Origin: Dehalococcoidia bacterium
GTDB lineage: Bacteria; Chloroflexota; Dehalococcoidia; UBA2979
NCBI GenBank assembly: GCA_965219085.1
Contig: OZ244720.1
Coordinates: 2,976,001 to 3,040,000, forward strand
DNA: 64,000 nt
Direction of reading: 5' to 3'
Every line of letters begins with the position of its first letter. Positions within the stretch are counted from its first letter, which is position 1. This document shows, one piece after another, positions 14,229 to 16,843 of the stretch. Below the pieces are notes generated by a model. That model was not told the DNA's origin, searched no databases, and worked only from the letters and a program-made list of their open reading frames with translations. Position numbers and translations under genes: made by a program.

Positions 14229-14615
14229 TTAGCGAGTGGGAGGCATGGTCTGCACAGCGTATTGAGGGATGGTGCTGTCACTCGTCACAATCGTCAGGCC
14301 CTCAGCCTGAGCCTGCGCGATGAGCATCCGGTCGAAAGGGTCGCGGTGGATGGGCGGGAGCGCTGCGGCCTGCTCGCCGTGAAAAAGAGTGACCGGCAGG
14401 CCCGTGAAGCCATCGCGTTCAATCCTTCCGGACAGGTCTTCTGGAGCTCGGAGCTTGCCTAACGCCCGCTTGATGGCGATCTCCCAGACGGTGGCTGCGC
14501 TGACATAGCAGTCGTTGTTCGGGTCGGTGATGGCATCGCGTGAGACCGGGCCCAGGCTCGGATTGTTGCTGAGTGCCCATACCAGCACCTGGGAGTCGAG
14601 GAGCAGGCGCAGCAC
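14229..14615 (-). CDS. vapC: PIN-domain (VapC) toxin
   Basis: LLLDSQVLVW, SAATVWEIAIK, HRDPFDRMLIAQA. Confidence 0.93.
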   Translation of the reverse strand: MLRLLLDSQVLVWALSNNPSLGPVSRDAITDPNNDCYVSAATVWEIAIKRALGKLRAPEDLSGRIERDGFTGLPVTLFHGEQAAALPPIHRDPFDRMLIAQAQAEGLTIVTSDSTIPQYAVQTMPPTR

Positions 14616-14857
14616 TATGCTTCGTCGTCGTAGGCGCCCTCGAACGCTTCGATGATCTCCAGAGGAGTCTCATCGAAGTCCGGGGCGATCCATATCTGTC
14701 CCTCAAGCGAGCCCAACTTGCGTCGGCGCCGCTCACGGTATGGCTGCAGCAGGAGGTAGGGCTTGCCCGCTTTGGCGATGACAACCTCCTCTCCCTGCCA
14801 AGCCAACTCGCCCAGTCGTGAGAGCTGTGACTTTGCTTCGTGCATGTTGAACTGCAT
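14615..14857 (-). CDS. Phd/YefM-family antitoxin
   Basis: NMHEAKSQLSRL, GEEVVIAKAGKP, IWIAPDFDE; TTAGCT repeats just upstream. Confidence 0.92.
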   Translation of the reverse strand: MQFNMHEAKSQLSRLGELAWQGEEVVIAKAGKPYLLLQPYRERRRRKLGSLEGQIWIAPDFDETPLEIIEAFEGAYDDEA

Positions 14858-14913: not shown

Positions 14914-14972
14914 CGTCAATCAGCGGCGTTCTCCCCTGCCGATTGACGCTAGCGGCCCTCCCGCCATATCGT
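14914..14972. promoter_or_regulatory. Back-to-back sigma70-type promoters
   Basis: CGTCAATC (14914-14921)/GATTGACG (14941-14948) give TTGACG on each strand; + strand -10 TATCGT 14967-14972; - strand -10 CACCAT at 17-nt spacing. Confidence 0.55.
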
Positions 14973-14999
14973 CGCGCCCAAGGAAGGAGGTGATGCCTC

Positions 15000-15071
15000 A
15001 TGGATGATGATCGTAGTCACGGCCCGGAGGGCCAATCGCATGACATCTCTAAGGAGGTGTCGGCGGGCTAA
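15000..15071 (+). CDS. 23-aa small ORF (MDDDRSHGPEGQSHDISKEVSAG) within a structured small RNA
   Basis: AAGGAGGTGAT at 14984-14994, ATG 15000, TAA 15069-15071. Confidence 0.55.
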   Translation: MDDDRSHGPEGQSHDISKEVSAG

Positions 15072-15093
15072 TTCCGGGCCCGTGTGACTTCTG

Positions 15094-15125
15094 GAGCGCC
15101 CCGGCCTGGCCGGGGCGCTCTCTTT
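15094..15125 (+). terminator. Intrinsic terminator
   Basis: GAGCGCCCCGGCC-T-GGCCGGGGCGCTC followed by TCTTT. Confidence 0.8.
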
Positions 15126-15189: not shown

Positions 15190-15975
15190 GTGCCCTTCGA
15201 CGAATCGCGCTACGAGGAGCTGCACCACGGCGGCATGATCGGCTCGCTGGTGCACTATCGCGAACGCACCGCCTCGACCATGGACGACGCGCGCGCGGGC
15301 GCCATGGCGCGCCGCGGAGAGGGCTGCGGCGACGCCTACCTCGCCGACGAGCAGACCGCGGGACGCGGCCGGTTCCGACGGCCATGGGTCGACGCGCCCG
15401 GCGCGTCCCTGCTCGTGACGTTCCACCTCTGCGTGCTCGACATGGTGTACGCCCCGCTGGTCGGGTTCGCGGGCGCGCTCGCGGCCGCGGAGGCCGTGAC
15501 GGAGGCGAGCGGCGTCGAGACCGGGTTGAAGTGGCCGAACGATGTGCTGGCGGGGGGCCGCAAGCTCGCCGGGATCCTTGCCGAGGCGCAGCCGGGTGGC
15601 GTCGAGGCCGACGTGTTCCTCGGCATCGGCATCAACATCGGCGAAGCCGCGATCGCCGGCCTGTCCGAGGCGGAGCGCGCCGTCGCGACGACCATCGAGG
15701 GCGAAGGGGCGACAGCCCCAAGCGTTGAGGAGTTGCTGGCGGCGCTGTCCGAGGCGCTCGAGCGTCGTCTCGCGGAGGTCGACGCGGAGCCGGAGCGGCT
15801 GCTCGCCGACTGGCGGGCGCGCCTCGGCATGCTCGGCTCCCGCGTGCGGCTCTCGACGACGGACGGCGAGATCGAGGGCGTGGCGACGGATGTGACGGCC
15901 GAGGGGCAACTCGTGCTCCGCCTGGACGCTGGCGACACGTTCAGCTTCGCTGCGGGCGACGTCACGGTGCTGTGA
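15190..15975 (+). CDS. birA: Biotin-[acetyl-CoA carboxylase] ligase without HTH
   Basis: STMD, QTAGRGR, LKWPND, KLAGIL, GIGIN. Confidence 0.93.
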   Translation: MPFDESRYEELHHGGMIGSLVHYRERTASTMDDARAGAMARRGEGCGDAYLADEQTAGRGRFRRPWVDAPGASLLVTFHLCVLDMVYAPLVGFAGALAAAEAVTEASGVETGLKWPNDVLAGGRKLAGILAEAQPGGVEADVFLGIGINIGEAAIAGLSEAERAVATTIEGEGATAPSVEELLAALSEALERRLAEVDAEPERLLADWRARLGMLGSRVRLSTTDGEIEGVATDVTAEGQLVLRLDAGDTFSFAAGDVTVL

Positions 15976-16253
15976 GTGTCGCGGGAAATTCTCGCGTGAC
16001 CGATCAGGAGATCCTCGCGAAGGCCGAGAGCATCGCCCGGCGAGCGTACACGTTCACGCTGACGCCGAATGAGGGCGGGGTGTGGACTTCGGGGGTGCTC
16101 GAGATTCCGGGAGTCGTGTCGGAAGGCGACGATCCAGCGGAGGCAATAACGATGGCGCGCGACGCGCTGCTTGAGTTGGCGATTGTGCGCCTCGAGGATG
16201 GGATCGAGATTCCCCCGCCGTCGGAACCTCGTGACAGCCGAGTTGATGGCTGA
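15972..16253 (+). CDS. HicB-like antitoxin domain, no HicA partner seen
   Basis: LEIPGVVSEGDDPAEAITMARDAL...GIEIPPP. Confidence 0.8.
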   Translation: MSVAGNSRVTDQEILAKAESIARRAYTFTLTPNEGGVWTSGVLEIPGVVSEGDDPAEAITMARDALLELAIVRLEDGIEIPPPSEPRDSRVDG

Positions 16254-16255
16254 GC

Positions 16256-16843
16256 GTGCTCAGGCGTCAGCGACGCGGTCGGAGGCGTAGAGGGCCGAAC
16301 GTGCGCGGCGCGCGCGGGATGCCGATCGTAGTCACGCGCGTCAGTGACGGTGACACGGTCGTTGTTCGCGAGGACCGGCGGTTCGCGCAGGAGTTTCGGG
16401 TGCGCCTGTACGGCATCGACGCGCCTGAGTCGGATCAGCCGTTCGGGCGCGAGTCTACCGAGGCACTCCGGCGAATGACGAGATCGCAGCCATTGTCGCT
16501 CGACGTCTTCGCCCACGACCAGTACGGGCGTGCGATTGGACTGCTCTACCCGCGAGGCGGCGATCCGCGTCAGTCGTTGAACGTCGCGATGGTTCGCGAG
16601 GGGTGGGCGTACTGCTACCACCGGAAGGGCCGCTACAGCCACGGACTGGACGCGGCACAGCGCCAGGCGCAGGCCGCCAGACGCGGGGTATGGTCTCGGC
16701 GAACCGAGCGGCCCTGGCGTTACCGGCGCCGCATGGCCGAGGAGCCGGCCGCGTCACAGATGTCGATCGAGTCGCGCATCTTCATCGCTGCGGCAGCGCT
16801 GCTCATCCTGGTGATCGTGATCGCGAGGGTGTTCGGCGGTTAG
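16256..16843 (+). CDS. Thermonuclease (SNase) family protein with C-terminal TM helix
   Basis: VSDGDT, RLYGIDAPE, DQYGR, MVREGWA; start may be 16319. Confidence 0.88.
   Translation: MLRRQRRGRRRRGPNVRGARGMPIVVTRVSDGDTVVVREDRRFAQEFRVRLYGIDAPESDQPFGRESTEALRRMTRSQPLSLDVFAHDQYGRAIGLLYPRGGDPRQSLNVAMVREGWAYCYHRKGRYSHGLDAAQRQAQAARRGVWSRRTERPWRYRRRMAEEPAASQMSIESRIFIAAAALLILVIVIARVFGG

Follow-up and report, generated by a model that had tools for sequence, protein, structure and literature searches.

This analysis concerns a compact, unannotated element of about 150 nucleotides (nt) that lies directly upstream of birA, a gene for a biotin-protein ligase, in the genome of a Dehalococcoidia bacterium (Chloroflexota). 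The reference locus is the window, that is, the whole stretch of 64 kilobases (kb) that was analysed (contig OZ244720.1, positions 2,976,001 to 3,040,000); coordinates are those of the window, and the element and birA lie on its + strand. In 5' to 3' order, the locus comprises a promoter, a short open reading frame (ORF; here called the mini-ORF) behind an extended Shine-Dalgarno (SD) sequence, an RNA rod that involves much of this ORF, a terminator-like hairpin and finally birA. The individual features are as follows.

14943..14972, + strand: predicted sigma-70-type promoter, with -35 box TTGACG (14943-14948), a spacer of 18 nt and -10 box TATCGT (14967-14972)
14981..14994, + strand: extended SD sequence SD1, AGGAAGGAGGTGAT, complement of the 3' end of 16S ribosomal RNA (rRNA)
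15000..15071, + strand: candidate leader ORF (the mini-ORF), 23 codons plus TAA, with ATG at 15000, TAA at 15069-15071 and predicted translation into the peptide MDDDRSHGPEGQSHDISKEVSAG
15015..15089, + strand: rod of the minimum-energy fold, formed by ORF codons 6-10 (15015-15028) and the post-stop segment 15073-15089 around the apical hairpin 15042-15061
15015-20/15084-89, + strand: outer helix of the rod, AGTCAC/GTGACT
15021-28/15073-80, + strand: middle helix of the rod, GGCCCGGA/TCCGGGCC
15042-61, + strand: apical hairpin of the rod, GACATCTC-TAAG-GAGGTGTC
15042..15050, + strand: anti-SD mimic GACATCTCT, which resembles the 16S tail (CAUCUCC) and has SD1 (helix P1) or SD2 (apical hairpin) as partner
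15051..15059, + strand: second SD copy SD2, AAGGAGGTG, within the ORF and ending three codons ahead of its stop
15093..15125, + strand: intrinsic-terminator-like hairpin of 13 base pairs (bp) with a 3-nt loop (stem-loop 15093-15121, first pair G.U), followed by CTTTCC
15190..15975, + strand: birA, encoding a group-I biotin-protein ligase of 261 residues without a DNA-binding domain

An earlier sequence-only reading of this DNA had placed the promoter, the SD, the ORF, the rod, the apical hairpin and a 13-bp inverted repeat at these positions, and direct reading of the letters agrees with it throughout. The promoter is the only sigma-70-like site that a promoter scan calls between 13500 and 16500 (shuffle mean 0.2), and transcripts would start at about 14979-14981. 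The 16S rRNA of the same genome, as read from the genome, ends in GGATCACCTCCTTTCT. Against its last 14 nt, SD1 is perfectly complementary over 11 nt (AAGGAGGTGAT, 14984-14994), or over 14 nt (14981-14994) when one G.U pair is counted; it is thus indeed an unusually long SD, as had been suggested. A non-complementary spacer of 5 nt separates it from the start codon. The sequence AAGGAGGTGAT occurs in only 4 copies in the 3.3-Mb genome, both strands considered, and a paralogue search found no further copy of the unit in its own genome. The 148-nt RNA 14978-15125 has a predicted folding energy of -84.9 kcal/mol, compared to -59.4 +/- 4.4 kcal/mol for 200 dinucleotide shuffles, none of which is as stable (z = -5.85). 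Its minimum-energy fold consists of the rod and the terminator hairpin, and the rod hides the second SD in the way first proposed.

Comparison of sequences gives access to the parts of the element, their conservation, the constraint on the reading frame, the alternative pairings and the linkage to birA. By blastn, the unit is found in 18 of 18 congeners, with 74-92% identity over almost its full length. Outside of the genus, blastn matches do not exceed 35 nt and comprise the terminator only (in 22 genomes), and an exact pattern search among species representatives returns 18 loci, all in the genus and none elsewhere. Since blastn fails beyond the genus, covariance models were required: model R1 was built on the genus and model R2 on 31 family and class members, and neither model contains birA sequence. 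R1 yields full-length matches in 73 of 99 genomes, corresponding to 17 of the 21 genera of the family. In the class Dehalococcoidia, R2 was run on a sample of 151 genomes from 110 genera, and the element is present in 59 of these genomes and 44 of these genera. A sample of 151 genomes across the phylum contains it in 48, other classes of Chloroflexota among them; this latter count takes in the genome studied here and one unpublished genome (G277), on whose sequence no claim rests. One match per genome is usual. Two matches of the class search with R1 (L087 and L094) are false positives that comprise the terminator only and were excluded. Seven complete genomes of small size, all from one Dehalococcoidia family (f47), give no match with R2. 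The distribution is wide without being universal. The SD, the ORF and the stems recur in these relatives, and the fold, the congeners and the covariance-model matches together bear out the claim that a real unit is conserved from promoter to hairpin. No Rfam 15 family reaches its gathering threshold at this locus: the best matches, ncS54 (21.4 bits against 43) and sX6 (20.6 against 40), align via the terminator hairpin alone. Rfam also has no match on the element in 13 relatives, so that the comparison with Rfam leaves the suggested novelty standing. We found no account in the literature of this element, of an RNA, upstream ORF or attenuation leader of birA, or of such cassettes in Chloroflexi.

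The identity of the downstream gene is given by the Pfam domains BPL_LplA_LipB and BPL_C and by NCBIfam TIGR00121 (113.5 bits, cut-off 83.1). The element is closely linked to this gene: of 107 loci, 81 have birA as the immediate downstream neighbour in the same orientation, among them 72 of the 78 loci from Dehalococcoidia (genus 19/19, other genera of the family 28/31, further Dehalococcoidia 25/28, other classes 9/29). The linkage extends to loci whose BirA protein has an identity to that of the window down to 27-55%. The estimated gap between the end of the element and the start of birA, with birA starts extrapolated from tblastn alignments, is at most 60 nt in 57 of the 81 loci and at most 40 nt in 45 of them. 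A gap that is mostly no longer than 60 nt leaves no room for a separate birA promoter and 5' untranslated region (UTR). The promoter motif TTGNNN-N16-19-TAnnnT is found just ahead of SD1 in 87 of the 107 loci (19/19, 31/31, 22/28 and 15/29 for the four groups in the same order). Alignability between relatives starts sharply at the -35 box; the upstream neighbours differ, and the flanks do not align. A hairpin tail with no more than 1-3 T in 8 nt characterises 11 of the 19 congeners, in which the start of birA follows at a distance of about 25 nt. In these congeners, the weak tail and the nearby start of birA would place element and gene in one transcript.

The sequence-only reading had regarded the unit as an independent gene rather than a leader, and had pointed to a -10-like box of birA's own past the terminator. 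The same-strand linkage, the short gaps and the position of the promoter ahead of the mini-ORF speak against such an independence. Only the seven closest congeners, with a shared identity of about 90%, have the box itself (TACACT), and the promoter scan does not call it. Among the exceptions to the linkage, the locus of G067 runs into a contig break, and birA opens a different contig; in G108, 2.8 kb are inserted between the element and birA, and in L069 a further gene separates the two. Detached copies of the element are located at G030:C1:748783-748932 and G054:C56:73976-74163. The ORF that follows the copy in G030 resembles a zinc-type alcohol dehydrogenase, as judged by eye and not by a scan of family libraries. 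In G054, a HisZ-like ORF begins about 320 nt past the element; relatives carry the same gene after birA, as if birA had been excised.

The mini-ORF is intact in all 19 sequences of the genus, with 22-23 codons, an ATG or GTG start and a TAA or TGA stop in the same place; the sole indel is an in-frame deletion of 3 nt. Its length is 21-24 codons for 30 of the 31 loci that belong to other genera (41 codons in the remaining one) and 19-26 codons in other families. All 65 family and class sequences examined have an open ORF with a strong SD, and keep its start, frame, length and stop. The distance from SD1 to the start codon, which is ATG, GTG or TTG, is fixed; for five sequences (L074, L077, L078, L088 and L092) the automatically assigned start is the GTG inside GATGTG, in frame with the ATG used elsewhere. 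A test that is independent of the annotated frame is provided by the distance between the start codon and SD2, which varies from 42 to 63 nt: of the 60 sequences with an SD2 motif, 59 have a distance divisible by three (the exception being L093). Indels therefore come as whole codons. Likewise, a spacing of two to three codons between SD2 and the stop codon recurs among relatives. SD1 is invariant in 19 of 19 genus sequences, and the median complement across the 107 loci amounts to 9-13 nt perfect, or 12-14 nt with G.U pairs.

The variable columns within the genus are distributed over codon positions 1, 2 and 3 as 8, 10 and 10, respectively, that is, with no excess at the third position. Codons 8-14 vary non-conservatively (Gly/Glu, Pro/Val/Ala, Gln/His/Ser, Ser/Arg/Leu, Gln/Trp). 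The residues that are conserved overlap RNA motifs: Asp/Gly-Ile-Ser falls on the anti-SD mimic, Glu-Val falls on SD2, whose core GGAGGTG is invariant in the genus, and Ser is always encoded by AGT, which is paired at the base of the rod. Where Ser is replaced by Phe, or Glu by Gly (L056), the RNA motif or purine run is kept and the residue is lost. The Asp codons 2-3 alternate between GAT and GAC, with the residue kept. With respect to arrest motifs of the SecM or TnaC type, the three C-terminal residues are variable (SAG, HPG, SET, SSA, IST and others), and the conserved Glu-Val is SD2. The peptide is acidic and hydrophilic in all members, and searches of Pfam and NCBIfam with it returned no family. 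On this pattern of substitution, the conservation of frame, length and boundaries without that of the peptide sequence is the signature of a leader ORF rather than of a micropeptide gene.

The RNA structures behind these motifs are conserved to different degrees. Within the genus, only 65% of cells are paired in the middle helix of the rod (alignment A1, 46-53 with 98-105), whose register is not kept; the apical hairpin is invariant and 100% paired. In 51 family and class sequences, the rod recurs at the same place with an entirely different sequence between genera. The pairing of codons 3-12 with the post-stop segment in these 51 sequences has a median free energy of -20.4 kcal/mol and a median z of -2.78 (36 of 51 below -1.64), the sequences' own partner beats foreign partners in 41 of 51 cases, and for the rod region as a whole the median z is -2.7. 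A second helix, P1, pairs SD1 and the spacer between SD and start codon with the anti-SD mimic and the two codons before the mimic. P1 is the consensus preferred by RNAalifold for the genus (99-100% paired; SD1 with CATCTCC 100% paired). Its flanking helix shows two compensatory pairs (CCUGC:GCAGG versus CCCAC:GUGGG) that tie the spacer in the 5' UTR to the Gln-to-Trp change at codon 14. The terminator stem likewise shows compensatory changes in the genus. On the class alignment, P1 is 81-91% paired and the terminator stem covaries in 13 of 13 pairs, both counts resting on model-fitted alignments, which lean toward the model. The complementarity between SD1 and the anti-SD region beats shuffles (z < -1.64) in 24 of 51 sequences.

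In nested folding, P1 and the rod with its apical hairpin are mutually exclusive. In congeners, a fold with P1 imposed is 2.6-10 kcal/mol less favourable than the rod state, which makes the predicted RNA near-bistable. In short relatives of other classes, SD1 and the anti-SD form the dominant hairpin (12 bp), the anti-SD reads Gly-Ile-Thr-Ser, and a third SD-like copy is located past the stop. The competition of P1 with the rod state, together with the SD1/anti-SD hairpin of these short relatives, indicates a common design of SD1, anti-SD and SD2. A hairpin of the intrinsic-terminator type is present between the leader ORF and the structural gene. Among the 107 loci, 70 have a tail with 4 T or more within 8 nt, and the tail is nearly absent in the 11 of 19 congeners mentioned above; here it has 3 T in the 8 nt past the stem, a short tail because of which a simple terminator scan misses the hairpin. 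A pairing between the SD1 region and the terminator arm, seen in truncated folds, failed the shuffle control and was discarded.

Based on these observations we lean, with moderate confidence, towards the element being a translated 5' leader or attenuator of birA and not an independent micropeptide gene. The proposed course of events is as follows. A near-consensus promoter would give rise to an RNA whose first bases (SD1) can pair with essentially all of the free 3' tail of 16S rRNA. The 23-codon ORF comes next and contains the anti-SD mimic CAUCUCC. With the mimic on SD1 (P1), the ribosome-binding site would be closed; with the mimic on SD2 (apical hairpin), SD1 would be free. The middle of the ORF would pair with the segment past its stop to form the rod. 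The GC-rich hairpin follows about 21 nt past the stop codon, with a U tail in most relatives, and birA 20-60 nt past the hairpin, in most relatives without a promoter of its own. Most transcripts would stop at the hairpin and constitute a mini-mRNA of about 150 nt, and birA would be expressed from read-through. The translation state of the mini-ORF, set by the SD1/anti-SD/SD2 switch and the supply of ribosomes, would then tune the output of birA. The ends of the transcript, the translation of the mini-ORF, the share of read-through and the dependence of read-through or of birA translation on ribosomes are all postulated in this scheme. With the stop codon in the ribosomal A site, SD2 would be located at an initiation-like spacing from the P site, and a pause or tethering of the terminating ribosome is plausible. 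The remaining routes for a coupling would be the proximity of ribosome and polymerase or a factor acting in trans; the element might also be a constitutive attenuator that sets a low level of birA.

A number of results weigh against a translated leader of this kind. A test for an antiterminator was negative: the pairing of SD1, of the 5' strand of the rod and of its 3' strand with the 5' arm of the terminator is equal to that of shuffles (median z 0.13, 0.09 and 0.44, respectively). Folds with the ribosome-covered part masked likewise reveal no consistent alternative partner. With a gap of 21 nt between stop codon and stem here, the edge of a ribosome positioned on the stop codon would leave about 10 nt free before the hairpin. 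A terminating ribosome would hence not cover the hairpin, and translation would have no evident handle on termination. No regulatory run of codons is found in the mini-ORF: the only candidate is Asp-Asp at codons 2-3, which is not present in every genus, and nothing in it relates to biotin; birA is also not an amino-acid biosynthesis gene. In the sequence of the window itself, P1 is weak and 25 kcal/mol worse than the rod state, because the flanking helix has lost 1 nt and carries a base change. The 62-nt gap to birA in this genome holds the -10-like TACACT, and birA could have a start of its own here. In G030 and G054, the element is intact and birA is located elsewhere with no element upstream. 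The only RNA run found (X1, a metatranscriptome in the form of contigs) covers 15475-15642 inside birA and none of the element, where DNA runs cover the whole stretch; with a piece of birA as its only content, X1 is uninformative either way on a discrete transcript. Finally, the counts of distribution are derived from samples of related genomes that are not independent of each other.

Several of these points would be accommodated if the element were an autonomous small mRNA or dual-function small RNA of the 'rre' kind, that is, an RNA of about 150 nt that is held on the 30S subunit by its extended SD and acts thereby or in trans, with birA merely downstream and receiving some read-through. The unit is self-contained from promoter to hairpin, its complement of 11-14 nt to the 16S tail resembles that of rreB (PMC5711450), and it stays intact where it is detached from birA (G030 and G054). 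Look-alike cassettes precede smpB, greA and mreB in other classes, an antiterminator was not found, and the predicted fold of the window's RNA exposes SD1 at equilibrium. A mere neighbourhood would hardly account for the linkage to birA in 72 of 78 Dehalococcoidia loci, which persists despite a BirA identity of only 27-55% across genera, and in most loci a birA promoter of its own would not fit into the gap. The U tail is moreover lost in 11 of 19 congeners, and the SD falls short of the 16-17 nt that define rre genes. We consider an autonomous RNA of this kind rather unlikely, and yet a serious possibility. A functional acidic micropeptide of 23 residues, for example a partner or regulator of BirA, is a highly improbable explanation: the ORF is open behind a strong SD throughout the 65 family and class sequences, and the GAT/GAC alternation at codons 2-3 does preserve Asp, but the even spread of changes over the codon positions (8/10/10), the free variation of the middle third of the peptide and its length of 19 to 26 residues do not fit a conserved protein. 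The conserved residues fall on RNA pairing motifs, the Ser-to-Phe and Glu-to-Gly changes keep the motif and not the residue, and no Pfam or NCBIfam family matches. The micropeptide gene that the sequence-only reading had listed among its options is disfavoured accordingly, with residues conserved only where RNA motifs coincide.

It is also conceivable that the leader binds a ligand or protein, as a riboswitch or as an operator for autoregulation by BirA, and that the ORF is incidental. A stable, conserved and partly covarying RNA upstream of a cofactor-handling enzyme would suit this function, and we know of no biotin riboswitch. An incidental ORF is at odds with the conservation of frame, start and stop across the phylum. 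The sequence of the rod is not conserved and offers no recognisable pocket common to the members; the test for alternative pairing with the terminator was negative; cassettes of the same design precede unrelated genes; and Rfam yields no match. We therefore regard a riboswitch or operator as very unlikely. A translated leader of birA remains the reading that we prefer.

Beyond the element itself, the neighbourhood in the window comprises, at 14229-14857 on the - strand, a PIN-domain (VapC-like) ORF and a weak Phd/YefM-like ORF, which diverge from the leader promoter. The back-to-back arrangement with a Phd-VapC promoter was noted early on and is present here. It is not shared by relatives, whose upstream flanks do not align, and by this comparison of flanks it is particular to this genome, a local accident. 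Downstream, a HicB-like ORF of 93 residues (15972-16253, + strand) overlaps the end of birA by 4 nt and has no obvious HicA partner; it is followed by a staphylococcal-nuclease-like gene (16256-16843, + strand). Elsewhere in the same genome, GGAGGTGA plus a start codon is found at 72 sites, 11 of which have ORFs of 8-45 codons, and none of the 10 mini-ORF sites other than the element resembles the cassette, as judged by eye from predicted folds. One site outside the window (G000:C1:2532586, + strand) consists of GGAGGTGAT and a 30-codon ORF for the hydrophobic peptide VRSALASLGAALVVMILAFMAFSPTLRRMT. A GC-rich hairpin is located about 40 nt past the stop of this ORF, and the site may represent a small membrane-protein gene.

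Cassettes of the same design, consisting of an extended SD, an ORF of 15-31 codons and a hairpin terminator, occur in other classes of Chloroflexota, with the element at about 1501-1680 of the oriented locus. In L138 and L155, the cassette is directly ahead of smpB, which in L155 is followed by the gene for transfer-messenger RNA; in L140 and L143, it is directly ahead of greA, followed by a gene for a class-II aminoacyl-tRNA synthetase; in L148, it is directly ahead of mreB, with birA divergent upstream. In the f76 group, greA is found after birA. A set of six loci (L135, L137, L144, L154, L157 and L162) contains short cassettes of 13-14 codons that encode MSDQPxGITSGxxx. In these, SD1 and the start region form a hairpin of about 12 bp with the in-ORF copy of the 16S tail, and the third SD-like copy past the stop is located just ahead of a long terminator; no same-strand gene was recognised within 700 nt downstream. 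Four further loci, from the genus g161 with genomes of about 6 Mb (L146, L149, L150 and L152), have a 14-codon cassette with MSDSSHCSITGGLL or MNDSSHCSITEGLL. The cassette of L150 has a 23S rRNA gene on the opposite strand as a neighbour, whose 3' end is about 370 nt away.

As far as such comparisons between loci reach, the phylum may use this cassette design as a general type of leader. A bolder version, which we put forward tentatively and consider unlikely, is a phylum-wide family of 'ribosome-sensing' leaders: the extended SD would compete with SD2 for the in-ORF mimic of the 16S tail, would thereby report the speed at which free 30S subunits load onto the nascent RNA, and would gate terminator read-through without an antiterminator into housekeeping genes such as birA, smpB, greA-lysS and mreB. 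If true, such a family would constitute a general device that couples gene output to translation capacity, and would provide a physiological role for mini-mRNAs with an extended SD. The product of birA attaches biotin to carboxylases, and its control is known at the level of protein and DNA; in the literature on birA we found no description of control at the level of RNA or translation. The cassette described here extends from Dehalococcoidia to other classes of a phylum that is mostly uncultured, in a region that annotation pipelines leave blank and for which the covariance model could be employed.

Among known systems, the layout is closest to ribosome-mediated leader-peptide attenuators, such as the trp, his, phe, leu and pyrBI leaders. 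Common to both are the order of promoter, short ORF, intrinsic terminator and structural gene that probably lacks a promoter of its own, a frame that is conserved when the peptide is not, and an ORF embedded in RNA structure. In contrast to these leaders, the element has no detected antiterminator that competes with the terminator and no regulatory codon run, its ORF ends 21 nt ahead of the hairpin, and its gene encodes a cofactor ligase instead of belonging to an amino-acid or pyrimidine operon. Its alternative pairings would act on the ribosome-binding site (SD1, anti-SD, SD2) and not on the terminator. In this respect the element resembles translational switches that sequester an SD and 5' stabiliser SD elements: the ribosome-binding site can be closed by an internal complement and opened by a competing third strand, and a strong SD is located near the 5' end. 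Different from such switches, all three strands are located in or before a presumably translated mini-ORF, a terminator comes after, and an input by temperature, ligand or protein is not evident. Type I toxins are small, hydrophobic and membrane-active peptides; the acidic, non-hydrophobic peptide of the element does not belong with them, in agreement with the earlier view that such a toxin is unlikely.

The 5' end finds its closest counterpart in rreB, an mRNA of 165 nt whose SD spans 17 nt and whose ORF has 14 codons; this mRNA binds the 30S subunit and has no known function (Hahn et al. 2016, PMC5711450). The rre genes are characterised by a complement of at least 16 nt to the 3' end of 16S rRNA that reaches the start codon (PMC5711450); in the element, the perfect complement is 11 nt long (14 nt if one G.U is admitted), and a 5-nt spacer separates it from the start codon. 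The likeness to rreB and rreR comprises an RNA of about 150-165 nt with its own RpoD-type promoter and terminator (known here from predicted sites), a tiny ORF, an SD that covers much of the free 16S tail and is partly contained in a conserved hairpin, and an unstructured or unconserved peptide. The differences are the ORF length (19-26 codons in contrast to 14-18), the occurrence in Chloroflexota instead of Alphaproteobacteria, and the tie to birA, where rreB is located between a tRNA gene and a sensor gene; the internal anti-SD mimic and the second SD copy are also features that we did not see described for rreB. If ribosome loading controls the output of the element, the enigmatic mini-mRNAs with an extended SD would gain a testable function. 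The element has an attenuator-like layout and an rre-like 5' end and falls short of a defining trait of each; its design brings together a leader ORF, a ribosome-binding site that is close to maximal and an internal copy of the anti-SD.

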